A stretch of 63,398 bases of DNA, the filler included, from Trichodelitschia bisporula (lineage: Eukaryota): assembly GCA_010356995.1 (NCBI GenBank). It is 6 parts of 4 records of this genome, joined end to end, with 100 filler letters (N's around TTAATTAATTAA, not from the genome) between each part and the next. Parts side by side here need not be neighbours in the genome. Positions count along the whole stretch, not along the records: positions 60,253 to 63,398 come from ML996717.1; 5 more parts are not named here. One strand, 5' to 3'. The notes below the pieces were generated by a model. The model was given only the letters and a program-made list of their open reading frames with translations. It had not been told where the DNA came from and made no database searches. This document shows, one piece after another, positions 6,501 to 63,398 of this stretch; the first letter of the stretch is position 1, and each line of letters opens with the position of its first letter. The translations under genes were made by a program, and so were the position numbers.

Positions 6501-6712
6501 TTACTGTCAAGCTAGCTCAAAGGACGAACGGGCAATGAAAGTAGACACCGGGAAGAGGGTGGATTGGACGAGGCGAGAATGCTGGGACGATCGGCACGGA
6601 TCGTAGACCGCACACCACCTCGTCGACAAAGAAATATGTTCAGCAAAGCGTACGCACTGTAAAGGCCAAAGTGAGTATTCATCCCACGCAGCTTGGGACC
6701 CATGTTCACACA

Positions 6713-7552: not shown

Positions 7553-7610
7553 TTTGCCTGTTAAACTTGTTAAGCGATTGTGCTGTCAAACGATTGTGTA
7601 CGGGCTGGAC

Positions 7611-7699
7611 GAGCGACGTGATGAGCGACCGGCAGGAACGAGTGACGTGATGAGCGATCGGCAAGGAACGAGCGACGTAATGAGCGACCGACGGGAAGG
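7611..7699. repeat. Three imperfect ~29-30 bp tandem repeats in the hydrolase promoter region
   Basis: GAGCGACGTGATGAGCGACCGGCAGGAAC-like unit x3, just upstream of ATG 7552. Confidence 0.75.
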
Positions 7700-7897
7700 A
7701 GTAACCTTTGAACAAGCAATCGAGGGCAGGAAGAGTGCAGCATATATGGAAGTCGTCATAGTTTCATCTTAAGCGCGGCCGTTCAGACACAACCCCAGCG
7801 GGGAACGGGAAAATCAATCTAATAACAAAGCCGCTTATCAATTCTACATACATGTACCGCATCCCAAAAACCCGTCTACCGAGCGCCTGGTATCATA

Positions 7898-9739
7898 TCA
7901 CTTCCACTCTGCCATAAACCCTTCGTGGAAGCTCACCATCCGCTCCACCCAATCGGTGCCGGGCGCGAGGAATGTTGTCCGGAAGTGCAGCGTGCCCTCC
8001 TTTTGCCCAAAGCCGGAGCCGGGCACGACGCAGATGCCTGTCGCGTCGAGTAGGCGCAGACAGTAGAACTCATCTGGCGTGTGGTTTTCCGCAGCGGCGG
8101 CCTCGTGGGCGCGCGACGGTAGCGTAATGGTCGGGTACAGGTACATGGAGCCCTGCGGCTCCTGGCAGTGCACGCCCTCCATGCGCTTGAAGGCCTCGTA
8201 CAGCGCAAGCGCGCGCTTGTGCAGACCCTCGAAAATGGAGTCGTACTCCTGCTTGTACAGCGGGTAGCTCGGCTCGCCCTCGCGCGGTGGGTTCACCATG
8301 CACTCGACGATGCACTGTCCGACCACCGGCGGACATAGCTGGATACTGACGAACTTGTAGATCTGCGCAACGACCTCCGGGTCGAAACCGACGAGCTCGA
8401 AGTAGCCACCGCGATGACCGCACTCGCCGACCATGCCCTTGCTGATGCTGTGCAGCGACGCCAGCTCGACGGTGTCGTATATGCCCGGGTTCGCGGCCTG
8501 CAGCTCGCTCAGGCTCTTCTTGAAGCTGGTGAACTCGCCGACGAAGACGTTCGTCTGGTAGACTTCGTCCGCGATAACGACGAGCTTCTCCTCAGCGGCG
8601 AAGCGCAGCACATCCTGCACCTCGGCGGCCGTCAGCGTCCCGCCGGTCGGGTTGCCGGGATTGATGACGGCGATGGCACGGACGTCGGTGCCATCGGCAC
8701 GCGCCTTGGTCAGCGCGTCGCGGATGGAGTCCAGGTTCGTGCCCCACGCCTTCGCCTCGTCGAGGTAGTATGGCACACAGCGCGCGTTGAGGACGGCGAG
8801 GGTGGCGGTGTAGAGAGGATACTGCGGGATGGGAATGAGCACGCCGGTTTCGGGGGTGGCGCAAATGACGTGCAGCAGCGTGTTGACGCCGGACGAGGCT
8901 CCAGTTGAGAGGTAAATGGTGGAAGGGTCGGCGGGGTAGCCGTCGCGGCCTGGAGCAGTCAGTGACGTAAGAAAAGATACGAAAGGGTCAGCGCACGTTC
9001 GATGAACTTGGCCACGCTCGCGCGAATGCCCGGTGCGCCCATGCTCAAGCTGTACGCGCCGACGCTCTGCACCTCGCGCAACAGACGGCGCGCGCGCGCG
9101 AGTACGTCGGACTGATAGCCCAGCTGGTTAAGCAGCACATCCTCGTGCTCGAGCAGCGCGGGGTTCTCAAGTAGACTCGCGACCTGACGGAAGAAGGTTA
9201 TGGGCTTCTGATCGAGCTGCTGCGGGTTGCCGATGTTGGCGGCGATGACTGTGTCGAACGGCAGGTCCTTGCCGTGGCCGAGGGCGAGCGCCGAACGGTA
9301 CTCCTCCGCCTTGATAGGGATCTCGCCGCGCACGGCATACTTGGCCGCCTTGACGTGCGGGTTGATGTTGGCGAGGTTAAGGGCACGAGAGGCGTTGGAC
9401 GACATGGCGCGGATGGATGCCGGGGAAATGATTGTCGGGGGAGAAGTTGGGGATCCTAGGGAAGGCAAGGTGGATATCGATATCGGCGTGAAGGTGCGGG
9501 GTCGTACTCGTAGTGCAGCGGCTAGAATTAATATCAGCAAGCGCTCTTTCGATAACCCACCCGCGGTTGCTTTTTCACCCATCAATTGCCAGTCGCGCCG
9601 ACCCAATGAGGCAAAAGACGCAGTGCCACCTGCAGCAGAAGAGAAGAATCTTCATACCTCGCGACTTCAGGCTGCGCGCAGTTGCGTGCGGCGATCGCCA
9701 ACCGGGAGGTCTGCAGACACGACGGGGGATAGCCTGCAT
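7898..9739 (-). CDS. ALT1: Alanine aminotransferase (PLP-dependent, class I) with a putative N-terminal mitochondrial presequence, 3 exons
   Basis: Motifs YAVRGE, ANIGNPQQLDQKPITFFRQV, INPGNPTG, ADEVYQ, SLHSISKG (PLP Lys), GECGHRGGY, VPGSGFGQ. Introns 9522-9657 and 8950-8996; internal ATG at 9405 (MSSNAS). Confidence 0.93.
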
Positions 9740-13853: not shown

Positions 13854-15015
13854 TGTCACGCCAGCCTTCCTGCACCCCGCCGTGCCTTAGGCAGACGGCA
13901 GCACGATCTGCTCAAGAGTCTGGCGGCTCGCTCTTCAGATAAATCTTTGTGGAAGTAACTTGTTCATGCCTGCACCATACCCATCGTGACTTCCACACTT
14001 TTGCACGCCCCTGACACGTTACTTCCACCAACTGCCTGTGGTTGGAACCCTGAAAGTCCCCCACGGTCAGTCTAAACATGCTTTCTTTCCTCGGCGGGTC
14101 CCAGGATCGTCGCCTTCAGTGACCTTTGCCGAGTCGCTGCCGCAGGCGATGGTCTGACCCCAACGCCGAACCAGTGACAGTGTCACTGCCTCCCTCTCAT
14201 TCGGATGGCTCTTGACGAGCCAACTACCCTGTACTCTTAGATCTCGATGGAGCTATCAGTAAGAATCCGCTAATTCGAGGCCCAGAACCCCGTCGAACCC
14301 CTTGCCAGCTCTCGCACGATGTCTAAGGCTAAGGGCAAAGAGCCGATGAAGACTGCTGCTGCTCCCGGCAGGTCAGCACAGTCACCTATCTCGGATACCC
14401 TTCTCCAAAACCCCCTTGCCAGGCCGTCGGACGGCGAAGAACATGGGCCCCCGGAGAGTGAAGGAGATACCCCAGCCGGAGCCACTCCCGACCGGGTAAG
14501 AATCATCTGGGACGAAAACGACCCTCATTGGAGTCTGGTGGGCGTTGACAATTTGGTCCTGGAATGGAGCAGTGTCGAAGAACTCAGCGACCTGGTTGTG
14601 GGGCACGGGCAAGAATGGCTTCGAGCCATGGAGGGACTCCGTCGCAATGCAGCCGCCGACGCGGAACATGTCCGTGCCGCGCAGGAGGCGTCGACACGTG
14701 CCCTTGCCGACCTCCAGTCAGCCCAACAGTCGCTGGCGCAACTTCAGGCCGAACAGCAAATCATTCTCGAAAACTCGGTTCGCGAGAACGCCTTGCATGC
14801 GGAGCGCGTGGTACAACGTGCTCAAGCCACCGAAGCTCTTGCCACAGCCAACTCGGAACTTCAAATGGCTCAAGCAAAAGCTCGTCTGCAGTTCGGCTCT
14901 CTTCTTGGAAGCGACGCTTCCACCCGGCCCGGCCCCTTCCTCAGGCCTGACGCCTCGACTCCGTCCAGTGCGGGCCCGGACCAGACTGCCGCCATTCAGT
15001 CCGGCTCTCTAGCAC
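13854..15015 (+). mobile_element. 5' part of a Ty3/Gypsy-like LTR retrotransposon (candidate LTR 13854-14179, gag ORF from 14319), truncated at a solo LTR
   Basis: TGTCAC...GTGACA inverted termini. ORF MSKAKGKEPMKTAAAPG is near-identical to the copy at 56270, which continues into a retrotransposon-gag-like motif. Confidence 0.65.
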
Positions 15016-15189
15016 TGTTAGAAAGCGGTGGCTGTGTTCAGCCTTACCCAGTTTCAGCCACAGGGCTCGAGTATGAGCAGACTCGGGATCCCCACCTCTT
15101 TGACAATCAAGCAACTTGTTCATGGACAGACCTTCGGTCTAACTTGTGATGCTGTGATGTCTCCATTAGTCTCACACCTCCTTTTAACA
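15016..15189 (+). mobile_element. Solo LTR family A (174 bp), no TSD
   Basis: TGTT...AACA termini; homologous to 16265-16438, 58289-58462, 15547-15720 and 24683-24856. Flanks AGCAC / CCTGC differ. Confidence 0.85.
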
Positions 15190-15546
15190 CCTGCATATTG
15201 CAGCTCTCGGACAGTTGGACAGCTGAGCGCTGCACGCCTCAAGCTCACCGGAGGTCTCACGCAGCAGTCAGCTGCAATGTTGAACGGTGGCCGGCTGTTG
15301 ATGGTGCCCCCAATCACCCGGATTTTGAGAAATCCGGTGATTCCATTAGGACTTTTATCCGTTCACGGCCTTGGCAGACCATGCCTGAGTTGGCCAGGAG
15401 TTTGAGTTGAGATTTTTGAGTTCATGCGATTTTGTGCGCAGTGGAAGCAGCGGTTAAGCTGCTGTGCATGTTATCTCAACGGTCTTTGTTTATTTTACAG
15501 GAATACTTAGCTGATTGTGTAGAATAAGCATTCCGGGCCCATAACC

Positions 15547-15720
15547 TATTAAAAGGAGGTGTGAGACTAATGGAGACATCACAGCATCACAAGTTAGACC
15601 GAAGGTCTGTCCATGAACAAGTTGCTTAATTGTCAAAGAGGTGGGGATCCCGAGCCTACTTATACTCGAGTCCTGTGGCTGAAACTGGGTAAGGCTGAAC
15701 ACAGCCACTGCTTCCCAACA
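15547..15720 (-). mobile_element. Solo LTR family A, inverted
   Basis: Reverse complement of LTR-A. One terminus reads TATT instead of TGTT (RIP-type change). Confidence 0.85.
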
Positions 15721-15900
15721 GGAAGAGTGGGAAAGGAAGGTGAGAAGGAAGATCCACATGGACCTGGCAGCACTGCTGGTAATGGAAGAGAGTTAAGCGA
15801 GCAGGAGCAATGCTTTAAGGGAGGGGGGTTCATGTCGTGGGAGTAGGCCAAGGCCCCCATTCCTTCTCTTAAGCAACGGCCATGTTGGAGCCTCAGGCTT
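15721..15900 (+). mobile_element. Possible 3' end of a Gypsy-like element (PPT plus start of an LTR)
   Basis: Purine tract AAGGGAGGGGGG at 15817, then TGTCGTGGGAG at 15833; the same 11-mer occurs at 13794. Confidence 0.4.
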
Positions 15901-16074
15901 CAACCAGGCCGTCAGCCAATGCCGGGAGCCCAGTGCCGGGTAAACGTTTACCCGGTACCGGCACTCCAACAAACGTAAGGGGCTCGCCCTCACCAGTTTC
16001 TTCCCTCTTCATAGCAATCAACTTGGTTATGTCTCGCCCCATTGCCGTGAGTTCTTCATGCCGTGCGGTCCCCT

Positions 16075-16264
16075 GACACGGGACCTTGATCGCAAATATC
16101 AGGAACTGAGGCTGGCCGACTGCAAAGACGTCACCGATTTCGCGCAGCGCCTCGGTCACGCATACCACGAGCTCGTTGCCCTTGACGCTTCCGTCGAACT
16201 GAGCGAGCACTTCCTTGTCAACAAGTTTCTCAACGGCCTCGGCGAAGATTACGACAACTTCATC
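16075..16264 (+). mobile_element. Ty1/Copia gag (UBN2-type) fragment
   Basis: YQELRLADCKDVTDFAQRLGHAYHELVALDASVELSEHFLVNKFLNGLGEDYDNFI resembles Copia gag; it ends exactly at an LTR-A. Confidence 0.7.
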
Positions 16265-16438
16265 TGTTGGAAAGCGTTGGCTGTGTTCAGCCTTACCCAG
16301 TTTCAGCCACAGGGCTCGAGTATAAGTAGACTCGGGATCCCCACCTCTTTGACAATCAAGCAACTTGTTCATGGACAGACCTTTGGTCCAACTTATGATG
16401 CTGTGATGTTTCCATTGATCACACATCCCCTCTTAACA
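16265..16438 (+). mobile_element. LTR family A copy
   Basis: TGTTGG...TTAACA. The right flank CGTAC matches the 58289 copy; the left flank is different. Confidence 0.88.
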
Positions 16439-17430
16439 CGTACCTGCAGCGCCTCGGCGAGCATCGGCGGGTCGCCCTCGTCGCCCGGGCCCTGGATGAA
16501 GTACGCGGGGTCATCGCGCACCGCGACGTCAGCCTTTTCGCGCGGGTTGATGCTCAGCTCCAGCACGTCGTGGCGTGGGCGTTTGCGCGCCTCTTCCACC
16601 ACCCGCGCGTCGGACGTCGGGGAATTCCTGGTACTCATCGCGGCCATGCTGACGCGGATCGTGGAGTTGTCCCCGGCGGCGGCAGTATTGAGCGTGCGGG
16701 TCTGCATTTGCTTTGGGGCTTGACATGTATTGTTGGCTCATCGTCTGACTGGACAGGTGGCTGGGCGGTCTGGTGAAGAGTGGGCTGGACATTTTGGACC
16801 ACGGTTAGCTGGACCTGGGTAGCTTGAACCTGAACGACTGGCCCGATCTGAACGGTCGGCTGAACCACGGGGGGCTGGACCGTGACTGCTGGCCGAACCT
16901 GAGCAGGCTGGACCGAACGGTTGGCCGAGCCTGAACAGGCTGCTGGACCTGGATGACAGGCCAGACCGGCTTCTGAGCCGTCACTTGGATGCTGCCTAGT
17001 ATGTCCGGCGCAGGCGTCATCTGGGGCTTCGGCTCCACCTGAATCGTCTCGCCCTGGGGCGGACCTTTGCCATGTGGCATAGACACACGCCGCACCGGCG
17101 GCATCACGACATGGGCCGTCTTCCGCGACTTCTCGGCCACAGCGGGATAGTGGTGCGCAACATGGGCCTTGTCGGAGACCAGCCTTGTCGAACAGGCTCA
17201 ACCGGAGCGGCTCGCGGGCGCTGACCCGTCGGCTCGACAACGCCGGCAGCCCCGCAGAACTGTACTCGGTGAGGGCGCCGGGATGCAGCAGCTGGCGTAG
17301 CTTGCGGAGTGACTGCTCGAGCAGCTGGGATGTACGGTGCGGGTTCTGCGCCTCAGTGTCTACGTCGAGCGGTTGGTGGGCGCGGCGCCGCTCGAGATCG
17401 CTAGGGTACACGACGGGCGGCACGGCGGGA
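16439..17430 (-). pseudogene. SCC2: N-terminal fragment of a cohesin loader Scc2/Mis4-like gene, frameshifted; duplicate of 58463-59331
   Basis: LSINPREKADVAVRDDPAYF...PPMLAEALQVR. In the other copy this segment is contiguous with clearer Scc2 sequence. Confidence 0.55.
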
Positions 17431-17770
17431 CCGGCTAGCTACTCGCCTTCCCGCTAGCAGCCAGTGTGTGCAGTCCAGCGGGTTCCACGATGAGCTCTGA
17501 CGCAGCAGCAGCGGGGGCTAGGAACGCCCGGGGGCAGGTGGGGGAGGTTAATGGGTGTTGTGGGGGAGGTTAATGGGTGTTATGGGGGCGGTGGCGGTCT
17601 TCAACGACGGCACCGCCTCCCGTCCTGTGCTGTCAGTCAAATTCTACGCCGCGCCCGCCTCCCGTCCTGTGCTGCCAGTCAAATTCTACGCCGCGCCCGC
17701 CTCCCAACCCTTCTGTGCTTATGGATCCACACGGTTGGGAGATGGTTTGAGCGGCGGCGCACTCCATTCC

Positions 17771-18279
17771 TCTGTGCAGGGTCTCGGATGACATACACAG
17801 GATTATCCCCCTAGCATCCTAGCATAGCTTCACGTCTTTATCAATGGAGGCTAATGAGAGGACATGCTGTACGTGACCGTCTCCCTTTTCCGCCTTGGAC
17901 CAGGTTGAGCTAGGGCCTGGCCCCGTCTTCGTCAACGCTCTGCACGACGAAAAGAAGCTGGGAGTGGCAAACTTTGAACACAGCCACCACATTCCATCAT
18001 AACTTCTCTGCGTTGTGAAGGAATGGTTAATTCCAGATCCTTCCAGATCCACAATGTATTGAAGCTATTACATCACTGATGGCGATATTTTCATTCGCCA
18101 TTGCCACTATTTGTAATTGGAGCATTCGATTTCAAAGCTGTCCCATTCCAATACGTAATTCATTGCCACTTTCGCTCTAAAAAAAAGGTATAAAAAGACA
18201 ATGGCCTCAACGGAGGTGGGTGGGGAGGAGGTTAAGAGACACTTCAGCAAATGAATTCCATACACAGCACTCGACCAGA
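17771..18279 (-). repeat. Duplicated segment: last codons and 3' flank of a WD40-type NLR (copy of 59460-59966)
   Basis: Near-identical to 59460-59966; minus strand ends GRVLCMEFIC-stop. Confidence 0.85.
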
Positions 18280-18379
18280 NNNNNNNNNNNNNNNNNNNNN
18301 NNNNNNNNNNNNNNNNNNNNNNNTTAATTAATTAANNNNNNNNNNNNNNNNNNNNNNNNNNNNNNNNNNNNNNNNNNNN
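18280..18379. other. Artificial contig spacer (44 N + TTAATTAATTAA + 44 N); also at 47464-47563, 56006-56105, 57221-57320 and 60153-60252
   Basis: Identical 12-nt all-frame stop linker centred in 100-nt gaps. Confidence 0.95.
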
Positions 18380-18553
18380 GTACGACAGTGCCCTGAAAAA
18401 CGCCTCCTACGTGATTCGCTACCTCGTGCAGCGCGCGCTCGCGTCGACCAAGTCCGACGACCAGCCGTACCACAACCTGCTCGACATCTTCATCGAGGAC
18501 TTGATCAACGTGCTCGGGTCGCCCGACTGGCCCGCCGCGGAGCTGTTGCTGCG
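18380..18553 (+). pseudogene. SCC2: Internal Scc2/Mis4 fragment
   Basis: ALKNASYVIRYLVQRALASTKSDDQPYHNLLDIFIEDLINVLGSPDWPAAELLLR matches the conserved fungal Scc2 D-x-PYR-x-LLD...EDL...L...DWPAAELLL segment; cut by LTR-B. Confidence 0.75.
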
Positions 18554-18694
18554 TGTTGAATTTATGGCGGCAACCTGGGGTGGCTGGAGTGGAGCCAGGA
18601 GACGGGGGTTGCCTCCTGGCGAGGTATATAGTCAGCTCACTTCCCACTGCTAGTCGATCAAGCAACTCAGTCAAGTTCACACTTCATTTTAACA
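18554..18694 (+). mobile_element. Solo LTR family B (~140 bp), no TSD
   Basis: TGTTGAA...TTTAACA; homologous to the Copia 3' LTR at 61572-61711. Confidence 0.85.
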
Positions 18695-19237
18695 CCCAAG
18701 TCGTACTGAATCACTCCGCCACAATCCTTGGACGGCTGGCAAACAACAACGTCCCCAAGCCGGATGTCGTCTTTTGCGCTCGGCACACCGCCTCCGATGC
18801 CGACCAAGACGCCGAATGGAACCGAAGTGAAAGTTGACTTCATTTGAGCAACCGCCGAGGCCGCCGAGTTTGTGCCCGTCAGCCCCAAGACCATGATGAC
18901 CGTATTGTGTTCGCCAACGCGGCGGAGCGTGTAGCTACTGGGATCGGACGCGTCCCGGGGGAGAGGTTTGGTGCTCTTGGTCGAGCATCTCCTGGGCTGC
19001 TGCAAGTTCAATGTCAAGCGCGCAAATACACCCGATTGTGCAGTCTTCGTGACGAAGTTGGCGGGTTGGCTTTCTGTTGGTGGTTCTCTGGAGGGCAAGG
19101 GGTAAGGTTGAGGTCTGGCTGACATTGCTCGCGGGCGCAGGTGTGGTGGTCTCACCAGCAACAGGTGAGGAGGGTCGTGAAAGACTGGAAGAGGCATGGA
19201 AGCGGCCCTGTGTCCGGATCCGCTTTGCAGGTGGCAT
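18695..19237 (-). pseudogene. Truncated, frameshifted PNP_UDP-domain NLR 5' fragment (paralogue of the gene at 47564-48636)
   Basis: MPPAKRIRTQG...TIGCICALDIELAAAQEMLD, frameshift near 18965, then GEHNTVI...GVLVGIGGGVPS..DIRLGDVVV..VIQYDLG ending at LTR-B. Confidence 0.85.
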
Positions 19238-45712: not shown

Positions 45713-45970
45713 ACATCCCGAGGGGCCACCATTTGGACCGATGGACCAAAGCGTAGACGTGACATCGGAAGCGCTCAGCAAATGGACATCCCGAGGCGCC
45801 ACCATTTGGACCGATGGACCAAAGCGTNNNNNNNNNNTTGGACCGATGGACCAAAGCGTAGACGTGACATCGGAAGCGCTCAGCAAATGGACATCCCGAG
45901 GCGCCACCATTTGGACCGATGGACCAAAGCGTGGACGTGACATCGGAAGCGCTTAGCAAATGGACATCCG
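45713..45970. repeat. 73-bp tandem repeat, collapsed around a 10-N gap
   Basis: ACATCCCGAGG starts at 45713, 45786 and 45891, with a partial unit at 45964. Confidence 0.9.
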
Positions 45971-47052: not shown

Positions 47053-47563
47053 GCGGGAGTGTGAGAGGGTGAGAGTATGCATTGCGTGTATAGTTAGGGA
47101 GATAGAAAGAAAAGCAGAGAGATAGCAAGGGAGAGAGGAGAAGAGGAGAGGAGGTGAGTCGAGACGATTTGATGAATACAATTGATGAAGAGTGTTGATT
47201 GAACAATAGTGGGAGAGAAAGAGACGAGCCACGGTTTCGCCCATATTGTCGGGTAAACAATGACCCGGGCCTGGTTACTCACTCTCAGCCCACGATAGAC
47301 GACTTGCATACTGTTCACTCTGTACACCCCACTGTAGCATATCGCCTTTGCCGCTTATTGATGGCCTCCATCTCGCCATCCTACATCGTCTCATCTTGTC
47401 TCCCACCACCGCTGACCAATTGGTCACCCAAATTTCTCGTCCAATTCGCTTTCAATTCCCACTNNNNNNNNNNNNNNNNNNNNNNNNNNNNNNNNNNNNN
47501 NNNNNNNTTAATTAATTAANNNNNNNNNNNNNNNNNNNNNNNNNNNNNNNNNNNNNNNNNNNN

Positions 47564-48636
47564 GGAAGCAACAACAAAAGCTCTTTAGCGTACGCTGCCG
47601 CCGTCCCCGCCGCGAATGGCTGCCAGCTCTTATTCTTGTGAGAGTCCGAGTAGTCGCAGATTCCCCGCACAGGCAGGCATGGAAAACTGTTCATCACCCC
47701 GGCGGCTTCCATTTCGAAGCACAGGACGCCTCCGAGTTCCTTGCTGACTTTGTCGCGTTCCTTGGCATCGCGCATGACTTGATTCCCCGAGGCGATCGTA
47801 CCGTAGTGAACCATGACATGTTCGCCACGTGTCTGGCGCCGCACGCTATGTTCTTCCTTACAATTCTTGCAGTTTTCCTCTCCCTCCTCATGGTTGTACA
47901 CAGGGTCGTATAGGACATCGGGCCCAGCCTTGTCGCGAGCGAAAAGGGACTGGTTGCTGAGGTTTGCAAGATAATCTAGGAAAACAACTCTTCCTTTCAG
48001 ATGGCTGGCCTTCAGACTCACCACCGCGTTCAGCAAGGCCATTGGGGGCGCGTTCAGAAATCCAGTTCGTTCAACTCCGTCCGGCCTGGTCTTGCCCAAG
48101 TCGTACTGGATCACTCCGCCACAATCCTTGGACGGCTGGCATACAACAACGTCCCCAAGCCGGATGTCGGCTTTTGCGCTCGGCACACCGCCTCCAATGC
48201 CGACCAAGACGCCGAATTGAACCGAAGGGAAGGTTGACTGCATTCGAGCAACCGCCGAGGCCGCCGAGTTTGTGCCCGTGAGCCCCAAGGCCACGATCAC
48301 CGTATTGTGTTCGCCAATGCGGCCGAGCGTGTAGCTATTGGTATCTGATGCGTTCCGGGGGAGACGTTTGTGCTCCTCATCGAGCATTTCCTGGGCTGCT
48401 GCAAGTTCAATGTCAAGCGCGCAAATCCATCCTATCGTATAGTCTTCGTGACGAAGTTGGCGGACTGGCTCTCTATTAGTGGCTCTCTGGGGGGCAAGTG
48501 GTAAAGATGAGGTCTGGCTGACACTGCTCGCGGGGGCAGGCGCGGGAGTGTTGCCGGCAACAGGTAAGGAGGGTTGCGAAAGGCTGGAAGAGGCACGAAA
48601 GTGGCCCTGTGTCCGGATCCGCTTTGCAGGTGGCAT
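47564..48636 (-). CDS. PNP_UDP-domain protein, N-terminal part of a fungal NLR; 3' end lost in the assembly gap
   Basis: YTIGWICALDIELAAA, LVGIGGGVPS, HYGTIASGNQVMRDA, LCFEMEAAG, RGICDYSDSHKNKSWQPFAA; open frame up to the gap. Confidence 0.88.
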
Positions 48637-51831: not shown

Positions 51832-53181
51832 TGTGAATGTTTTGATGGCTTTGCCGAAGTGAGGTGAGATTCGAGGTTCATAGCAGGCAGGGTATTTAAG
51901 TCTGGGGGAAAGTTCTAGTTCTAGGCAGACATAGACAGACTCAATGCTCAAAGCTATGACTATTTCAACGCCTCATGAAGGATGCAGCTCGAGACGAAAT
52001 TATTGGACAACTGAAGCAACTTTGGAAAGTGAGCATTTCACATTCTCTAGTCATCGATTTGGTCCTGCAGAGACCTGTCTTTGTGTTGAACACACCGTTG
52101 ATTGGATTGGATTTTCACCTATACACACCCACGCGGCGGCAGCACCGTACTGATGTTTACTAGTCCTAACAGCCAGAGGGGTGGGCGGGACGACCCGAAG
52201 ACCGAGTTTAGACATTTATCTGTCGCTTGATGTCGTCGCGTTGTTGTCGCTTGATGTCAGTGAGGAAGCGGCTTCTGCAGACCATTTTTCTTGTTCCCTC
52301 GTAGGCGCTTCTCCCCCGATACGAGGCCACAAAAGCTGGTGCAGCCTACTCCGCATGGACGGAAGGTGCAGCACAGCCAAGCACCTCACGCAAGAAAATC
52401 GCCTTACTGTTTCGTACCATGGTAGTTTAAGCACGAACCACACGACTCTTCGAGCTCCGCCGGCATCTGCCTTCGGGAGGGGTGCAGTAATGTACAAATC
52501 CGCAGTGGTCAACCGACATGATGGGAAAACTTTTGAGAGCAGGGCTCGTCGACACCCGGGTACAGCGGAGCGGACAATGCTTTTGCCAGCTGGCCACCTG
52601 CCCTTCCATTCATACTGTGGTAAATTTAAGCCTTGATTATTGGTGGACGTGTCGCCATGCAGTATGCATGTAGACTGCAGAGGTGCGTTGGCATGTTTCA
52701 GTAGAGTAGGCCTGCGCCTTCGAAGAAGAGGAGTTGAGGCTGTGCCTCGTGAGATGGAGGCGTGAGGCTCTGCCTTTGAAGGGGAGGGGTGGCTCTCATT
52801 CCCTTTCTGTTCATTCTCCGCTCAGCCAACTTCAAAACGCACGCTTCACGCTTCACGCTTCACGCATCATTCGGGCCTTTCTTCTTGGCTGTTTGTACAA
52901 CATCTCCCGCTATTATCGGATCAGAAAGCCACATCATCGGTACGAATGCATTTCTCTAATCACTGCCTCCTCTGATTCGCGATAGTCCAAAACCAACTAG
53001 GCTAGGCAAAGCCAGGAGCCTCCTCGTTAACAAATTTATTAAGAGCCGTCGGCCCACTATCACCGTTCTTCACAATATCGCTTCGCCGTCTCCGTCGAAA
53101 GTGCGCAGCCCTGTGGGTGGCGTGAAGGAGGGGACAAGGAGCAAAAGACTCATCATTCGGGAGGGAGTCTCGCCTCCCCGC

Positions 53182-56005
53182 ATGGAAAGACAGCAACTAG
53201 ACAAGAAGGTAGGTTCTCAGTTTGCATGGCCCACCTCGTGGTCTACAGATATCGAATGCAAACCCACTGACAATGTGGAGCTCTCTCATGCTGACACGGC
53301 TGCTGTTCGGAGCCTACTGCGCAAATTGAAGCATTCGGAATACACAATAGGATGGATATGCGCACTCCCTATCGAACTCGCGGCTGCCCGAGAGATGCTG
53401 GATGAGGAGCACCAGGATCTCCCTCAGAGTCCACCAGATGACAATATCTACCGACTTGGCCGCATTGGCGAACACAATACTGTCATTGTGGGCTTTCCGG
53501 CCGGATTCACGGGCTCCTCACAGGCGGCCCGGGTGGCCAGTCAAATGCAGACGACTTTCAAGTCGATTCGGTTTGGCCTTATGGTGGGCATTGGAGGTGG
53601 TGTGCCGAGCCGCAGACATGATATTCGACTCGGAGATGTTGTCGTGAGTCAACCATCGAATGGCCATGGCGGAATAATCCAGTACGACTTTGGCAAAACA
53701 AGACCGGACGGGTTTGAGCGGACTGGCTTCTTGAATTCACCTCCAACCGCTTTACTGAGTGCTGTAGCGAGTCTGAAGGCCAATCGCGACTTGGAAAAAA
53801 AATTCCTACGCCACCTTTTGAAACCGACCCGTCCACCTTGGTTTGCACAGAATGCCGGACCAGACGTTTTATATTGCGCTAACTACAACCATGACCGACC
53901 TGGTACTGATGACTGTCGGGAGTGCAAAACGGAGCATGTCGAACAGCGACAGCCACGTGAACATTTCATCGTCCATTACGGCACCATAGCATCCGGAAAT
54001 CAAGTCATGCGAGATGCTACGACAAGAGACAACGTCAGCAAGGACCTTGGAGGTGTACTCTGCTTTGAGATGGAGGCGGCAGGGCTTATGAACCATTTCC
54101 CGTGCCTTGTTGTGCGGGGCATTTGCGACTATGCGGACTCGCATAAGAATAAGAACTGGCAACTGTTTGCGGCAGGGCTAGCAGCTGCGTATGCAAAAGA
54201 GGTCCTTTTGTTGATGCCGGCAGCCGAAGTCGAGACAGGATCATCTGCGGTTGAGTTGATGAACCAAAATCTTAGTAAGTAGCCTTCACCCTTTCTTAAC
54301 TGGTAGAGGTCATAGGGAAGGTAGGGCTAACCGCAGTCGCTAGAATTCAATAAGGTTCTTGGAAACATACCCACGGCTGTAGAAGCGCCTTTCAATGCAC
54401 GCAAACGAGAACACGACACTGCCTGCCTCCCTGATACCCGTGTCGCACTTCTCAAGCAGATATATGAATGGGCTGATGGCATGGACTCCCCAAATATATT
54501 CTGGCTGAGCGGGTTGGCCGGTTATGGTAAGTCTACGGTTGCGCGAACAGTGGCCGCCAGATGTTTCAAGAAAGGCCTTAGCGCCAGTTTCTTCTTCACC
54601 AAAGGCGGCGGAGATGTTGGCCACGCCGGCATGTTTGTTACAAGCATCGCAGTGCAGCTTGCAAATAATGTGCCGGATCTAAAGCCGGTCATTTGCGATG
54701 CCATCGCCAACAACCGCAACATCGCAAGCCTGTCTCTACGCGAGCAGTGGGACCGTCTTGTTCTCGCTCCTATATCGCTGTTTGGAACCGATCAATCCTC
54801 TCCAACATTTCTCCTGGTTGTCGACGCTCTTGACGAGTGCACAGATGAGAGCGATGTGCGGATCATTCTTCAGCTTTTCGCCGAACTTCGAGGATCGCAC
54901 CAAACCAGGCTGCGAGTATTTTTGACGAGCCGACCCGAAGCTCATATCCGGGATGGGATTCAGCATATACCAGAAGTGGAACACTACGACTTTGAACTGC
55001 ATGGCATTCAACAGTCGGTTGTCGAACATGATATCCGCGTTTTCTTAGGGCACGAGCTTCGCCGTATTTCCTGCGAGTACTTTGATGGCACTGACTGGCC
55101 AAGCGCGCAGGACATCATTGGTCTTGCTCGGAACGCAAGTGGCCTATTCATCTGGGCTGCTACGGCATGTCGCTTTGTTAGGACGGGGAGACAATTTGCC
55201 ACCGACAGACTGGCTTCCCTCCTAAACCAATCCCCCACCGAGGGTAACACGCCGGAGAAGCAGCTCGACTACATCTATTCCACTGTCCTCAAGCAAAGCG
55301 TTCCTGAAGACTTTTCGGAAAAAGAGAAGGAAAAGCTGCGGTCTATGCTGAAACCTCTACTTGGAAGCATTGTAACCTTGTTCTCTCCACTTTCCATCCA
55401 GTCCTTGAGCAACTTGATGGAAACTTGCGGCAACGAAGTAAGCCAGACACTGCGCGATCTCCACGCCATTTTCGACATTCCAAAAGAGCCAAATCGCGCA
55501 CTCCGTTTACACCACCCTTCATTTCGGGACTTCCTTCTGGATAAAAAAAGAAGCGGAAGTGCCAAGTTCTGTGTTGACGAGAAGCAAGCACATCAGTCTC
55601 TTTCTGCGCACTGCATGCGACTTATGTCCAAATCCCTTAAGCAAGACTTGCTGGAAATTGGCCGTCCGGGTGCGCCTGCAACAGAAATCGCGAACGATCG
55701 ACTAGAGCGATGTCTCCCTGCTGAAGTACAATACGCATGCCTCTACTGGATCCAGCATACTCAGAAGGGTGGCTCCCAGCTTAGAGATGATGACCAAGTT
55801 CATCGGTTTCTAAAAGAGCATCTTCTTCATTGGCTTGAGGCGCTTGGATGGATGCAGAAGGTTTCCGAAGGGTTTCATGCCATCGTGTCTTTGGAGTCCA
55901 TGATATCGGTAAGCTGGACGTAAAGCAGAGTGGGGATACTTGGCTGATACTTGGTTTAGGCGCAGAGGTGTCCGCGACTATCGGAGTTTGTTCATGACAT
56001 GAAAC
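53182..56005 (+). CDS. HET-E-like NLR: PNP_UDP effector + NACHT, C-terminal sensor (probably WD40) lost in the gap; exact start uncertain
   Basis: Complete PNP domain; intron ~54275-54343; CLPDTRVALL; Walker A GLAGYGKST; Walker B LVVDALDEC; LTSRPE; GLFIWAATAC; HHPSFRDFL; QYACLYW; LHWLEAL; intron 55909-55959; FVHDMK. Confidence 0.92.
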
Positions 56006-56105
56006 NNNNNNNNNNNNNNNNNNNNNNNNNNNNNNNNNNNNNNNNNNNNTTAATTAATTAANNNNNNNNNNNNNNNNNNNNNNNNNNNNNNNNNNNNNNN
56101 NNNNN

Positions 56106-57220
56106 TGACCCCAACGCCGAGTCAGTGACAGTGTCACTGCCTGCCTCTCATTCGGATGGCTCTTGACGAGCCAACTACCCTGTTCTCTTAGATCTCGATG
56201 GAGCTATCAGTGAGAATCCGCTAATTCGAGGCCCAGAACCCCGTCGAGCCCCTTGCCAGCTCTCGCACGATGTCCAAGGCCAAGGACAAAGAGCCGATGA
56301 AGACGGCTGCTGCTCCCGGCAGGTCAGCACAGTCACCTACCTCGGATACCCCTCTCCCAACCCCCCTTGCCAGGCCGTCGGACGGCGAAGAACATCGGCC
56401 CCCGGAGAGTGAAGGAGATACCCCGGCCGGAGCCACTCCCGACCGGGTACGAATCATCTGGGACGAAAACGACCCTCATTGGAGTTTGGTGGGCGTTGAC
56501 AATTTGGTCCTGGAATGGAGAAGCGGCGAAGAACTCAGCGACCTGGTTGTGGGGCACGGACAAGAATGGCTTCGAGCTATGGAGGGGCTCCGTCGCAATG
56601 CAGCCGCCGACGCGGAACATGTCCGTGCCGCGCAGGAGGCGTCGACACGTGCCCTTGCCGACCTCCAGTCAGCCCAACAGTCGCTGGCGCAACTTGAGGC
56701 CGAACAGCAAATCATCCTCGAAAACTCGGTTCGCGAGAACGCCTTGCATGCGGAGCGCGCGGTACAACTTGCTCAAGCCACCGAAGCTCTTGCCACAGCC
56801 AACTCGGAACTTCAAATGGCTCAAGCAAAAGCTCGTCTGCAGTTCGGCTCTCTTCGTGGAAACGACGCTTCCACCCGGCCCGGCCCCTTCCTCAGGCCTG
56901 ACGCCTCGACTCCGTCCAGTGCGGAGTCGGACCAGACTCCCGCCATTCAGTCCGGCTCTCTAGCACCACCATCTGTCGACTTGATGCCTCAGGGCTCTGC
57001 AGCGTTACAGCGGGCTGAGAACTCGGATCCCCCCACCTTCAGCGGAGCCAACCGTGCCCAATACGCATCCTGGCGTGTTCAGATGACCTGGAGGATGCAG
57101 TACATCCCCACTGAGGCCCGCAAGATTGGCTTTCTTTGTCAAAAGCTCAACGGACTTGCCCTTGATCTCCTGCTCCCTTTCTTGAATCTCGGCACCCCGG
57201 AATGCTACACACACTCTTCC
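56106..57220 (+). mobile_element. Second copy of the Ty3/Gypsy-like 5' end (LTR end at 56130, gag ORF from 56270), bounded by gaps
   Basis: Near-identical to 14155-15015; extends into DPPTFSGANRAQYASWRVQM...RKIGFLCQKLNGLA, a gag-like motif. Confidence 0.75.
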
Positions 57221-57320
57221 NNNNNNNNNNNNNNNNNNNNNNNNNNNNNNNNNNNNNNNNNNNNTTAATTAATTAANNNNNNNNNNNNNNNNNNNNNNNN
57301 NNNNNNNNNNNNNNNNNNNN

Positions 57321-57462
57321 CAGCTTTCACTTCGGTTCAATTCGGCGTCTTGGTCGGCATCGGAGGCGGTGTGCCGAGCGCAAAAGCCGACATCCGGCTT
57401 GGGGACGTTGTTGTTTGCCAGCCGTCCAAGGATTGTAGCGGAGTGATTCAGTACGACTTGGG
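57321..57462 (+). pseudogene. PNP_UDP fragment cut by LTR-B
   Basis: FTSVQFGVLVGIGGGVPSAKADIRLGDVVVCQPSKDCSGVIQYDLG, then LTR; same junction as at 18694/18695. Confidence 0.85.
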
Positions 57463-57603
57463 TGTTAAAATGAAGTGTGAACTTGACTGAGTTGCTTGAT
57501 CGACTAGCATTGGGAAGTGAGCTGACTATATACCTCGCCAGGAGACAACTCCCGTCTCCTGGCTCCACTCCAGCCACCCCAGGTTGCCGCCACAAATTCA
57601 ACA
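57463..57603 (-). mobile_element. Solo LTR family B
   Basis: Reverse complement of 18554-18694. Confidence 0.85.
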
Positions 57604-59331
57604 CGCAGCAACAGCTCCGCGGCGGGCCAGTCGGGCGACCCGAGCACGTTGATCAAGTCCTCGATGAAGATGTCGAGCAGGTTGTGGTACGGCTGGTCGT
57701 CGGACTTGGTCGACGCGAGCGCGCGCTGCGCGAGGTAGCGAATCACGTAGGAGGCGTTTTTCAGGGCATTGTCGTGCGTGCGCGTTCTCAACGAAGAGCA
57801 GGCGCATCGCGAGGAACTCCATCTTGGTGGCCGCGCTCTCCGCGACGTTGACCTCAGATACGAGCATCTCGAGCCGGTGAAACACGGGCCCGCACATGTG
57901 CAGCAGCGCGGCCAGCGGTTTCTTCTGGGAGGCGAAGATTTTGAACGCGTCGGTGCTCATGCGCACCTCGACGACCGGCACGACGCTGTTGACGACGTGC
58001 TCCTGTGCGCGCATCATCCCCCCAGAGCACCACCTCCGAGTACAGCTGCTTGTCCTCGCGGCCGGCGGTCAGCACGCGCCGCAGGATCTTTGCCGCGTAG
58101 AGCCCCTTCTCCGCGTGATGCAGCCAGACGGCCCAGTCCGCGACGTCGTCGTTGACGACCAGGTTGATGCACTCGACCGAGGACACCGTATTGTCGCACA
58201 GCTTCTGCAGCCGCATCACGCTGTCGACAGCAACCCGGGAGAACGATCCGGTGGCGACAGCGGTGTGGACCGCGTTTTCGATGCGTACTGTTGGAAAGCG
58301 GTGGCTGTGCTCAGCCTTACCCAGTTTCAGCTACAGGGCTCGAGTATAAGTAGACTCGGGATCCCCACCTCTTTGACAATTAAGCAACTTGTTCATGGAC
58401 AGACCTTTGGTCCAACTTATGATGCTGTGATGTTTCCATTGATCACACATCCCCTCTTAACACGTACCTGCAGCGCCTCGGCGAGCATGGGCGGGTCGCC
58501 CTCGTCACCCGGGCCCTGGCTGAAGTACGCGGGGTCGTCGCGCTCCGCAGCGTCGGCCTTCTCACGCTGATCGATGCTCAGCTCCAGCACGTCGTGGCGT
58601 GGGCGTTTGCGCGCCTCTTCCACCACTCGCGCGTCAACGTCGGAGAATTCCTGGTACTCATCGCGGCCATGCTGACGCGGATCGTGGAGTTGTCCCTGGC
58701 GGGGGCGGCATTGAGCGTGCGGATCTGCATTTGCGGTGGGGCTTGACATATATTGTTGGCTCATCGTCTGACTGGACGGGTGGCTGGACGGTCTGGTGAA
58801 CAGTGGGCTGGACATTTTGGACCACGGTTAGCTGGACCTGGGTAGCTTGAACCTGAACGGCTGGCCCGATCTGAACGGTTGGCTGAACCACGGGGGGCTG
58901 GACCGTGACTGCTGGCCGAACCTGAGCAGGCTGGACCGAACGGTTGGCCGAGCTTGAACAGGCTGCTGGACCTGGATGACAGGCCGGACCGGCTTCCGAG
59001 CCGTCACTTGGATGCTGCCTAGTATGTCCGGCGCAGGCGTCATCTGGGGCTTCGGCTCCACCTGAATCGTCTCGCCCTGGGGCGGAGCTTTGCCATGTGG
59101 GCGTAGACACACGCCGCACCGGCGGCATCACGACATGGGCCGTCTTCCGCGGCTTCTCGGCCACAGCGGGATAGTGGTGCGCAACATGGGCCTTGTCGGA
59201 GACCAGCCTTGTCGAACAGGCTCAACCGGAGCGGCTCGCGGGCGCTGACCCGTCGGCTCGACAACGCCGGCAGCCCCGCAGAACTGTACTCGGTGAGGGC
59301 GCCGGGATGCAGCAGCTGGCGTAGCTTGCGG
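57604..59331 (-). pseudogene. SCC2: Internally deleted, frameshifted Scc2/Mis4 (NIPBL) cohesin-loader copy carrying a solo LTR-A
   Basis: SIDQREKADAA..DDPAYF..MLAEALQVR|IENAVHTAVATGSFSRVAVDSVMRLQKLCD..AAKILRRVLTAGREDKQLYSE..KMEFLAMRLLFVENA..STKSDDQPYHNLLDIFIEDLINVLGSPDWPAAELLLR. Confidence 0.78.
58289..58462 (+). mobile_element. Solo LTR family A with a 5-bp target-site duplication
   Basis: CGTAC-TGTTGG...TTAACA-CGTAC. Confidence 0.93.
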
Positions 59332-59412
59332 GTGGCACGGGTGAAGTTGGTGGCGCGGGTGGAGTTGGTGGCGCGGGTGGAGTTGGTGGCGCGGGTGGAG
59401 TTGGTGGCGCGG
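59331..59412. repeat. 18-bp tandem repeat x4
   Basis: GGTGGCGCGGGTGGAGTT units. Confidence 0.8.
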
Positions 59413-59931
59413 AGGAGATAGTGGCGCGGGTGGAGGTGGCGCTCTAGAATCAGGCTCTCTGTGCAGGGTCTCGGATGACATACACAGGATTATCCCCCTA
59501 GCATCCTAGCATAGCTTCACGTCTTTATCAATGGAGGCTAATGAGAGGACATGCTGTACGTGACCGTCTCCCTTTTCCGCCTTGGACCAGGTTGAGCTAG
59601 GGCCTGGCCCCGTCTTCGTCAACGCTCTGCACGACGAAAAGAAGCTGGGAGTGGCAAACTTTGAACACAGCCACCACATTCCATCATAACTTCTCTGCGT
59701 TGTGAAGGAATGGTTAATTCCAGATCCTTCCAGATGCACAATGTATTGAAGCTATTTAATCACTGATGGCGATATTTTCATTCGCCATTGATACTATTTG
59801 TAATTGGAGCATTCGATTTCAAAGCTGTCTTATTCCAATACGTAATTCATTGCCACTTTCGCTCTAAAAAAAAATGTATAAAAAGACAATGGCCTCAACG
59901 GAGGTGGGTGGGGAGGAGGTTAAGAGACACT

Positions 59932-60152
59932 TCAGCAAATGAATTCCATACACAGCACTCGACCAGACCGATACCCCAAGCCAATCTTATCCCCGTGAAT
60001 GGCGACGGCCGCCGGATAGCGATACTCGAGTGGAAGCCAAAGACGTTCTTCCGCGCCTATGGTTATCCATTCCCCGACAATTCTGAAACGTTGAGGATCC
60101 GGTCCGGAACCTGGCGACTGCTTGCCGTCCGGCGAGAAGGCCACGGCGTTGA
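59932..60152 (-). CDS. C-terminal tail of a NACHT-WD40 (HET-E/D-like) NLR; partial
   Basis: NAVAFSPDGKQ (WD40 unit), then EWITIGAEERLWLPLEYRYPAAVAIHGDKIGLGYRSGRVLCMEF, the typical tail of these proteins. Confidence 0.75.
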
Positions 60153-60252
60153 NNNNNNNNNNNNNNNNNNNNNNNNNNNNNNNNNNNNNNNNNNNNTTAA
60201 TTAATTAANNNNNNNNNNNNNNNNNNNNNNNNNNNNNNNNNNNNNNNNNNNN

Positions 60253-61711
60253 ACAGATCGCGTCTGCTCGCTGAACAAAGCGCTGTACGGTCTGAAGCAG
60301 TCCCCGCGAATCTGGTACAACACCCTGTCGGCCTTCCTGGCAGAGCTGGACTTCCAACCTCTCTCGTCCGACATGGGTGTGTTTTCAAAGGGAAACACGT
60401 ACATCGCCGTGTATGTTGACGACCTCCTCATCGCCGGACCTTCGGAGAACGAGGTACAACAGATCAAGGATGCCCTCAAAGCACGCTTCGAAATGGTGGA
60501 CCTGGGCCCCTGTGCGTTCTATCTCGGCATCTCAATCCGGCGAGACCGCCAGAACAGGGCCATCTTTCTCGGTCAGCGTGCCTACATTGAAAGGTCCTTC
60601 GCGACTTTGACATGCTGGACGGGAAGCCGACAGTCACTCCCATGGCAACCGACAAGATCGTTCCAGCACCCGATGACTTCCAGGCCCCTCAGAGCCTCAA
60701 GACCTGGTACGCCAAAGCGATCGGTTGCCTCATGTACGCCATGCTTGGTACCAGACCCGACATCGCATACGCTGTTTCCGTCTGTAGTCGCTTCCTCGCG
60801 AACCCTGGACCCCAGCACGAAACGGCGGTCAAGAGGATCTTTCGCTACCTTCGTGGCACCATGGACATGGAACTTGTGTACCGCGGCTCACTGGAAGCTC
60901 TGGCTGGTTACACCGACTCTGACTGGGCGGGGGATTCATCCACGAGGCGATCAACGGCCGGATACATCTTCAACCTCGGAAGTGGAGCAGTGAGCTGGTC
61001 ATCGAAGCGCCAGAGTGTTGTTGCACTGTCATCATGCGAAGCGGAATACATGGGGCAGACGCAAGCAACTAAAGAAGCTGTCTGGTTGCGCAACCTGCTA
61101 AAGGAACTTCTCAAACACGACGAGCCAGCAGCTACTGTCATCTTCGGAGACAACCAAGGCGCCATCTCGCTGGCAAAGAACCCTCAATTTCACGCCAGAT
61201 CGAAGCACATCGCCATTCAGCACCACTTTGTACGCGAGAAGCAGGCGGAGGGGGTCATCGACCTGCGGTACATCTCGACAAAGGAGCAGATCGCTGACGG
61301 ACTCACCAAGGCCTTGCCAAAGGATCCCTTTCTGGCTTTCAGGAAAGCTTTGGGGCTGGAGTGTCGCTTCGGACGGGAAAGCAATGGGTAAAGGCTTCTG
61401 GCACTCTTTTCCCTCGTTTTTCCCAAAGGGTTTTTTGAGGTTTTAATGAGGCCAGACACTGCCAACCCCTTCTTGTTTTTGTCCCTCTTGGAGTTTATTC
61501 CATCCCGGGACATGGGAGGCAGTGGGAGCTCACGGTTAGTGCACTTCCATCCACCTCAGTTTGAGTGGGAGTGTTGAATTTGTGGCGGCAACCTGGGGTG
61601 GCTGGAGTGGAGCCAGGAGACAGGGGTTGTCTCCTGGTGAGGTATATAGTCAGCTCACTTCCCACTGCTAGTCAATCAAGCAACTGGTCATGTTCACACT
61701 TCGTTTCAACA
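60253..61711 (+). mobile_element. 3' part of a Ty1/Copia retrotransposon: RT + RNase H, PPT, 3' LTR (family B, 61572-61711)
   Basis: KALYGLKQSPRIW, YVDDLL, TRPDIAYAVS, YTDSDWAGD..RRST.GY, SSCEAEY, DNQGAI, RSKHI, ADGLTKAL. One frameshift near 60590. TTGAGTGGGAG PPT abuts TGTTGAA...TTCAACA. Confidence 0.93.
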
Positions 61712-62550
61712 GTAAGAATGTGGGTGGTTCTTGTAGAAGATTATTAGCATGCAAATGCCAAACTGAAGTTACTTACGGTTTGGGATTTCGCTCATATCCT
61801 TTGTGAAAGACAAGGTTGATTTCCAGAACCAGCTTCTGTCTCATCCGTTCGGAATCGCGGACTAAGGAGAGCCTGACATGCTCATAACAAAGTACTTTGG
61901 GTGATCCCCCAAGATCTTCTCTGGCGTACTCCGGCTCAAGCAATGCCGCTGGCCTTGTTGCCGTAGCCATCGAAATCAGTATAACCAAGGCCACTTGGAC
62001 TCGTAATCTCTCGTTGGTATACTGCAGCCTGTCCCATTTCCAAAGGTGGTTGAGAAGGATGGTCATATCGGCAAAGCTTAGGACAGGCTTCGGCTGTCGT
62101 TCTCTACTGAGTCCATGCTCAGAGGCTAGATCCAAAGAGATGAACTATACAAAATTAGTTTCCCGTTTATCAAGATGAGTCTCTTACTGAATTGACACGC
62201 TTCCTGTCCTCAAGACTCCACACTCGGTGATGCGGTATTTGTCTTCGAGCGGTGTGCCACCGGTCATAGTAGGCGTTAATAGTTATCTCTTTTCGGATTC
62301 CCGTTTGCGTGTCCAAAGTCCATTTCAGAAACAACATAACCAGCTCAGGGTCAGCCTCCGCCATACACTTTTCAGGGTTACTGAAAAGTGCATCTCCATT
62401 AGGAATATCGGAGGCTCGTGCAGCTTCACAGAACTCTTTCCATTGATGGCGGGTTCGGCTCAGGTTGTGTTTTGACGATTTCGAGTATCTTGCCTCCACT
62501 CGGCGGCTTCTCAGCCTAGAGAGAAGGTGAGCGAAGTTTTGCGTCGACAT
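61712..62550 (-). pseudogene. DUF3435 tyrosine recombinase (Starship captain-like), N-terminal half, interrupted by the Copia element
   Basis: QWKEFC, LFLKW, KPVLSFAD..LL.HLWKWD...NERLRVQVALVILISMATATRPAALL, LCYEHVRLSLVR, LVLEINLVFHKG. Introns 62145-62187 and 61730-61776; exon 3 is cut after 18 nt by the LTR. Confidence 0.82.
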
Positions 62551-63398
62551 TTTGATCGAGGGCAGAAGGTTGACTTCCGAACCTGCAGTGGTCTTCGGAG
62601 ATATTTAAGTCAGAGCATTAACTAGTTTACCTCCTAGCCCTCCTAAGGACCATCTAACAACGCCCCTACCGAAGGCATCTAAGGACGCCTTATTCGTCGT
62701 CCTGGAAATTTGAGAAGTTGAAAAGAAGAATCGACAATTCCCTTACGTAGTCGCGCGCTTAATAATGGCAACTTTAATTGGACGATACTCGCCAAGCCTG
62801 ATGACAAAGGATATATGACGGCAGTGTAAATTCAGAGTTTACCAAATTGGGAACGCGACCATAGATACAGTCTCTGAACTACGGCCGCATTTTTGCGGCA
62901 AAATGCACACCGCCTTAACTAAGCTGCTGACTAATGTAGATACCGTACTACAGAGATGGAAAACGCGGCTAGGCGGCAGGGTGCGACTAGTCGCACACCC
63001 CCTTAGCCTTCGTGTACACCCCTTCCGCACCCCACCAATAAGACCGACGAGATCGTTCCCCGCGCGGCCGTGCGAGCCCTGAAGCGACAGGGTCGATGCA
63101 CCGCCGGGCACCCGATAATAAATTGCGAAAGTGGTACCAATCGATAGAGCTCGACGATGCGATCGTTTATCTGTCTTTCTTATTTTGATATCTCTTTATG
63201 CAGCCTCTGCATCGTGCTACAAAGGGCTTGGCCAATGTCACTGTCTGTCACGGGCAACGTCTGGGACATCAAATGTACTGATGCGTGTATGACTGAAAAT
63301 ACTGCTATGAAGAGGAAACGTGAAAGGTCTAGAACTGAAATGCAGGTGCGGGGTGGCAGTGGACCCTGGGCTTGGCACCGAGCGGCTGCATCACGTGG

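Follow-up and report, generated by a model that had tools for sequence, protein, structure and literature searches.

Starships have been defined as regions that are bounded by target-site duplications and carry a DUF3435 gene, the captain, at the 5′ end, and regions in which a DUF3435 gene is co-located with DUF3723, ferric reductase, patatin-like, or NLR genes have been described as Starship-like (PMC9156397). The captains have been called necessary and sufficient for transposition, a statement cited with HhpA, the captain of the Starship Hephaestus, and Starships are expected to occur at low copy number. DUF3435 repeats were first annotated as Cryptons (PMC9156397), and CryptonF, a group of compact fungal DNA transposons that encode a tyrosine recombinase (YR), was the outgroup of a Starship YR tree from which sequences lacking more than one active-site residue were left out (PMC11162782). 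The authors of that survey cautioned that many predicted YRs may be pseudogenes and that those assigned to no element may be solo captains or parts of elements not yet found (PMC11162782). Their supplement covers one assembly of Trichodelitschia bisporula, for which table S3 lists eight tyr loci, including scaffold31:6829-7627(-), named tribis1_534970. Table S4 labels tribis1_534970 as fam01, the same label as Phoenix_Mpha_mp053-Captain, Table 1 gives family 1 as Phoenix, and table S8 gives this genome a tyrCount of 3 and an elementCount of 0 (PMC11162782). The gene studied here is therefore already catalogued as a Starship recombinase, and its fam01/Phoenix assignment is the label given in table S4. 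The rows for tribis1_534970 in the supplement do not mention a Copia insertion. Our literature search found no paper with both Trichodelitschia and Starship in the main text, and none that paired the term solo captain with Starship.

We examined this locus in a 63,398-nt stretch of T. bisporula DNA, referred to below as the window. It is very probable, in our judgment, that the locus is a decayed remnant of a Starship-type recombinase gene broken by a Copia element. The locus holds the promoter-proximal 249 codons of a Starship-type (DUF3435) recombinase, catalogued as Phoenix family. A Ty1/Copia LTR retrotransposon has integrated into exon 3, so that the YCxRR box, the GH motif, and the tyrosine nucleophile are cut off from the N-terminal region and the first catalytic Arg. 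This copy is one of at least eight decayed family copies scattered over the genome, several of them near scaffold ends, and at least one other copy is uninterrupted at the insertion site. The locus is probably a derelict remnant of a formerly mobile element with a captain, which now serves as a landing pad for another transposon. The features of the locus are given in Table 1.

Table 1. Features of the recombinase remnant and the adjoining Copia element, in window coordinates. The LTR and both introns were delimited by reading the sequence.
Feature	Coordinates	Strand	Remarks
Ty1/Copia pol, 3′ part	60253-61391	+	Second half of the reverse transcriptase and RNase H region
Copia 3′ untranslated stretch	61392-61571	+	Ends in a purine-rich tract (GAGTGGGAG) before the LTR; without match to the other LTR copies
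Copia 3′ LTR	61572-61711	+	140 bp, TGTTG...CAACA
Predicted 5-bp target-site duplication	61712-61716		GTAAG; adjoins the LTR end, right-hand copy only
Exon 3 remnant	61712-61729	-	18 nt; with 2 nt from exon 2 encodes PTTHIL
Intron 2	61730-61776	-	47 nt, GTAAGT...GCTAAT...CAAG; frame restored across it
Exon 2	61777-62144	-	End of the N-terminal region and first ~80 DUF3435 positions, including TATRP (Pfam, alignment A2)
Intron 1	62145-62187	-	43 nt, GTAAGA...ACTAAT...TATAG, phase 0
Exon 1	62188-62550	-	121 codons; ATG at 62550-62548; N-terminal region ahead of DUF3435; residues 1-121 of P0151
Upstream region, seemingly repeated with the gene	62551-62877	-	Taken to hold the promoter and 5′ UTR; may include the 5′ edge of the repeat unit
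Flank without recognizable gene	62878-63398		No Pfam match (3 ORFs, E ≤ 0.1), no Rfam match

The initial annotation had described a spliced minus-strand gene with DUF3435-like motifs, and this description held. The gene occupies 61712-62550 and consists of three exons that together give 749 nt of spliced sequence, or 249 codons without a stop, ending in ..KGYERNPKPTTHIL. This corresponds to the front 40% of a captain gene, 249 of roughly 600 to 750 codons. A search with the DUF3435 model, which the annotation had proposed as a check, gave a match above the Pfam threshold: PF11917 matched the 123-aa frame at 61773-62144 (-) with an E value of 5.1e-12 and 45.9 bits, compared to a cutoff of 25.8, and residues 26 to 118 of the frame aligned with positions 3 to 81 of the 418-position profile. 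All of the motifs named in the annotation were present (KPVLSFAD, WKWDRLQYTNERLRVQVAL, TATRP, LCYEHVRL, and HKG). The two introns each have the fungal GTAAG donor, a CTAAT-like branch site, and an AG acceptor, and intron 1 was confirmed by the annotated protein P0151 (..KRVNS|FISLDL..). This 215-aa protein of Trichodelitschia bisporula, annotated as "hypothetical protein, partial" on a record of 8451 bp, is identical to exons 1 and 2 letter for letter. Together with the DUF3435 match, the listing of tribis1_534970 as a fam01 Starship YR in the supplement of PMC11162782 bears out the identification as a Starship-type tyrosine-recombinase gene. Reading through exon 3 into the LTR (61673-61729, -) adds 13 residues before a stop, for a total of 262 aa; if transcribed and spliced, the remnant would thus yield at most a 262-residue truncated N-terminal protein. 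The gene carries no signature of RIP (TpA/ApT 0.76; (CpA+TpG)/(ApC+GpT) 1.2), and short stretches upstream of it are borderline.

When the exon 2 frame was compared with 1.84 billion representative proteins, 193 relatives were found at E ≤ 0.001. DUF3435 was present in 14 of the 14 longer relatives that were scanned, which were mostly 595 to 967 residues long, and the domain started at residue 35 to 270, usually at about 114 to 161. This fits the N-terminal region of about 147 residues seen here and supports the identity of the gene. Searches against longer proteins were less productive: the exon 1 frame gave 176 candidates with none at E ≤ 0.001, and the exon 2 frame gave just three distant matches at 37 to 43% identity. 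When 27 long DUF3435 relatives were compared by tblastn, 5 matched exon 1 with their N-termini (E of 3e-5 to 5e-4, or jointly with exon 2). In alignment A2, which contains the gene and eight relatives, the invariant positions included L133, D147, L152, W156, E166, R167, Q171, T182, R185, P186, and Y208. One of these, R185 of P0151 (in TATRP), is the first catalytic Arg and the sole catalytic residue that survives. The LTxYCxRR, MGH, and Y motifs occur in the full-length relatives only, past the break, and the match of the A2 profile to the tyrosine recombinase XerA (5hxy_A; E = 0.0027, covering profile positions 318 to 376) also lies beyond the break.

The missing half of the catalytic domain was sought in the window by tblastn with the 27 relatives of at least 430 residues. 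Matches were obtained with 24 of the 27, all of them within 61671-62556 (-), and the other 3 gave none; nothing outside that interval was matched by any of the long relatives. This means that the catalytic half does not lie in the window. Of the six residues that make up the canonical active site, the tyrosine nucleophile among them, the first Arg is the only one present, and YCxRR, GH, and Y are absent from the window. Judged by its residues, what is left would be unable to cut or join DNA, and the locus is the remnant of a captain-family member and not a working member; the view in the initial annotation that the gene was killed agrees with this.

The element that borders exon 3 has the characteristics of Ty1/Copia, an RVT_2 reverse transcriptase, an RNase H region, and an LTR with TG..CA ends. 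Its identity follows from the RVT_2 match (PF07727) at 60253-60590, which has an E value of 5.6e-29 and covers profile positions 111 to 222 of 244. The piece starts at a spacer inside pol, such that the 3′ 1.46 kb of Copia is present and the 5′ half lies outside the window. Because the contig starts inside pol, a full Copia and a misjoined LTR flank look alike here. The Copia copy is itself defective, as its pol shifts frame at 60589-60590; the frame is broken near 60590 with a switch between the ORFs 60205-60993 and 60591-61391. In most contigs, 60589 is followed by an additional A (depth 1043 of 1221 in X1 and 4135 of 4504 in X2), and the window lacks it.

The LTR is 93% identical to 18553-18694 (+) and 57463-57604 (-), and both matches end exactly at 61711; elsewhere in the window, nothing else matched the piece 60253-63398. 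The claim that exon 3 is cut precisely by the 3′ LTR of a Copia element was therefore confirmed, with LTR similarity ending at 61711 and the RVT_2 match lying leftwards. Exon 3 is broken off after 18 nt, where the terminal CA of the LTR directly adjoins it. Its final six residues, PTTHIL, line up with PTTYIF in P0031, a full-length relative, which indicates that the reading frame runs up to the LTR. A left-hand partner of the predicted duplication, the junction GTAAG+TGTTG, was not found within the window, where the other two LTR copies have different flanks. Two contigs of X1 match rightwards from 61712 and continue leftwards with non-LTR sequence (...CTCG|GTAAG). Translated by hand in the frame of the gene, their left side reads ..TETVELIFDP, which fits the F/L-x-E...L...C/D-P pattern of the relatives at this place and is how exon 3 would be expected to continue. 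The organism thus has a version of the site without the insertion, most simply as another copy of the gene. Contigs diverging leftwards at 61572 numbered 12 in X2 and 1 in X3. The LTR is also the most repeated part of the stretch, with a summed depth of about 110,000 compared to 1,200 to 9,000 beside it. The copies at 18553-18694 and 57463-57604 share one flank (cccaagtcg...), which occurs without the LTR at 48095-48236.

The gene belongs to a family of at least eight gene models on seven records of this genome (P0151, P0153, P0154, P0152, P0155, P0001, P0002, and P0156), compared here as protein models and not as DNA. The seven other models are 79 to 91% identical to P0151. Three of the eight have exons 1 and 2, five begin at a Met within exon 2, and a frameshift near the end of exon 2 is found in three of the paralogue models. 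This count of decayed paralogues speaks against one captain that heads one element. Seven of the eight models are among the S3 loci of PMC11162782, whose eighth locus (522931), of 1616 bp, is a different fam01 gene. When S3 positions were combined with record lengths, five of these seven lay within about 16 kb of a record end, at 1 bp, 0.8 kb, 3.7 kb, 7.3 kb, and 15.5 kb. The S3 locus 534205:534208 spans 1584 bp, well past the position of Copia in the gene studied here, which means that the Copia insertion is not common to all copies. Several variant contigs were found per site of the gene region in X1 and X2, with 2 to 10 of them carrying another letter, and transitions accounted for 80 of 110 changed places. 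Run X3, from organism B (a small share), covers parts of the region at 93 to 100% identity and a depth of 2 to 7.

Upstream of the gene, variant contigs with 14 to 17 differences cover 62687-62830, variants or indels in multiple contigs extend up to 62852, and from 62873 onward all contigs are exact matches. The summed depth in X1 and X2 drops 4- to 7-fold at about 62878, where contig depth is not a measure of copy number. These observations weakly hint at an edge of the repeat family some 300 to 330 bp upstream of the ATG. On that side, the window breaks off 848 bp from the ATG. No Rfam family was found in 55000-63398, and thus there is no 5S rDNA or tRNA target nearby, and Pfam gave no match at E < 0.01 for three ORFs in 62819-63396, the frame at 56225-57220, and 59935-60150; two chance-level matches (E of 0.015 and 0.043) fell at 56225-57220. 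A single TTTACA, the published target site of the Starship Phoenix, occurs at 62830-62825 (-), 275 bp upstream of the ATG. We rejected it as an element boundary, as one occurrence of a 6-mer is no more than chance would give and the repeat apparently extends beyond it.

Five identical 100-nt spacers (N44-TTAATTAATTAA-N44) interrupt the window at 18280-18379, 47464-47563, 56006-56105, 57221-57320, and 60153-60252. Because these artificial spacers join separate pieces, lying side by side across a spacer does not establish neighborhood in the genome. Ordinary runs of N occur at 1508-2483 (976 N) and 45828-45837 (10 N), the latter flanked by a perfect 95-nt duplication (45733-45932) that is probably a gap-closing assembly artifact. 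At 1-1160 and 2858-3250, at the left end of the window, very long open frames contain long tandem repeats whose periods are about 132, 42, and 87 nt. The two small pieces to the left of the locus, 56106-57220 and 57321-60152, are 96 to 98% copies of 14155-18836 and have no Pfam-recognizable gene; they may represent either repeats that were duplicated or one region that was assembled in alternative ways. The copying, from 42 kb to the left, is part direct and part inverted (56106-59967 with 14155-18279, and 57321-57775 with 18382-18836). Beyond them, at 52960-55920 (+), lies an NLR-type gene in which an N-terminal frame resembling a phosphorylase (PNP_UDP_1) precedes one that carries NPHP3_N/NACHT and winged-helix domains. 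Its piece also carries a housekeeping prenyltransferase beta gene, RPN7 and an mRNA cap methyltransferase gene lie further left, and three spacers separate it from the captain gene. DUF3723, ferric reductase, and patatin matched none of 111 ORFs of the window at E ≤ 1e-4 (Pfam; 110 of the 111 N-free frames of at least 130 aa, plus 60253-60590). If base 6829 of the S3 locus corresponds to 61776, taken as the last sense codon of the exon 2 frame, base 8451 of the record would be 63398, the last base of the window, and about 5.3 kb of the 8451-bp record would precede 60253. The last three pieces sum to 7093 bp, leaving 1358 bp of the record for gaps, and the neighboring pieces may therefore be scaffold-mates; either way, the missing half of the gene is not in them.

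The initial annotation had placed the gene at the head of a Starship, now immobile, with a 5′ boundary within or beyond 62600-63398 and cargo to the left that possibly included the NLR. We regard this as improbable. The gene does belong to a captain family and is oriented leftwards, as expected of a captain located at a 5′ end (PMC9156397); in addition, there is a possible repeat edge upstream of the ATG, an NLR with PNP_UDP_1 and NACHT domains is at hand, and by the arithmetic above part of the same record would continue to the left. However, the last three spacers part the gene from everything leftwards, the adjoining pieces repeat a distant part of the window without any Starship accessory gene, the NLR shares its piece with a housekeeping gene, none of the ORFs matched an accessory family, the survey's element count for this genome is 0 (PMC11162782), and the gene exists in at least eight copies. 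A surrounding Starship with boundaries and cargo is thus unsupported, and the proposed leftward cargo found no backing. The same copy number invites a different explanation, in which the eight copies are remnants of a compact, multicopy, captain-only element that behaved like an ordinary DNA transposon. The eight fragments at 79 to 91% identity on seven records, the closeness of five of the seven S3-listed copies to a record end, and the variant contigs that span the gene and about 300 bp upstream and then stop are consistent with it, as are the low copy number expected of Starships and the survey authors' having left the solo status of unassigned YRs undecided (PMC11162782). On the other hand, the copies were compared as protein models, and the same picture at the protein level would arise if a large element had inserted repeatedly, or had been copied by segmental duplication, and then decayed. 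A burst of a small Phoenix-family captain-only element, with the Copia-hit copy as one casualty of the decay that followed, is therefore a tentative suggestion that we hold to be rather unlikely, with a better claim than a Starship with its cargo.

A further explanation concerns the break itself, namely, that the assembly joined the LTR to exon 3 as a chimera, whereas the organism has an intact gene. In its favor, the LTR is present in a great many copies, the contig starts inside Copia, the assembly is fragmented at repeats, and contigs with an uninterrupted site exist. Yet the break coincides with the terminal CA of the LTR, and the LTR end and the exon have no sequence in common, which is what a true insertion gives and argues against a chimera, and the uninterrupted contigs can derive from other paralogues, one of which spans 1584 bp according to table S3. 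We consider a chimera very improbable, the least likely of the explanations weighed here, and return to a true Copia insertion into a decaying recombinase gene as the preferred reading. On that reading, the locus is an ordinary remnant of one transposable element within another, a dead copy of an already catalogued gene family.

Comparison with the known systems places the locus as follows. With the Phoenix family, whose type element is Phoenix of Macrophomina phaseolina, it shares the DUF3435 gene, the fam01 label, and an N-terminal region of about 147 residues as in the full-length relatives. Unlike Phoenix captains, the gene is multicopy and decayed, it retains the first catalytic residue only, and no bounded element, direct repeats, or cargo was shown. 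HhpA belongs to the same superfamily, and it is intact and active, whereas the remnant lacks the part that aligns with catalytic box II and the tyrosine region of XerA. The locus fits the description of derelict or degraded Starships and unassigned solo YRs, with the difference that the inactivating event is visible here, a Copia LTR in exon 3 and not RIP. The Copia element has the order of domains shared by Ty1/Copia elements (RVT_2, RNase H region, purine tract, and TG..CA LTR), but compared to a typical member it is reduced to its 3′ part, with a frameshifted pol, a short LTR, and a predicted 5-bp duplication visible on one side. As for Cryptons, DUF3435 captains form a clade of their own (PMC9156397), which would set the fragment apart from them.

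The locus matters little beyond annotation, where it offers a detailed view of one catalogued Starship YR as a dead remnant killed by a nested retrotransposon. In this, it lends weight to the warning of the survey authors that pseudogenes are numerous among predicted captains (PMC11162782). The mildly unusual point is the copy number, as there are at least eight related fragments in one genome, several of them at scaffold ends. This raises the question of whether captain genes spread without cargo. If true, a captain-only burst would run against the expectation that Starship recombinases ride on low-copy giant elements.
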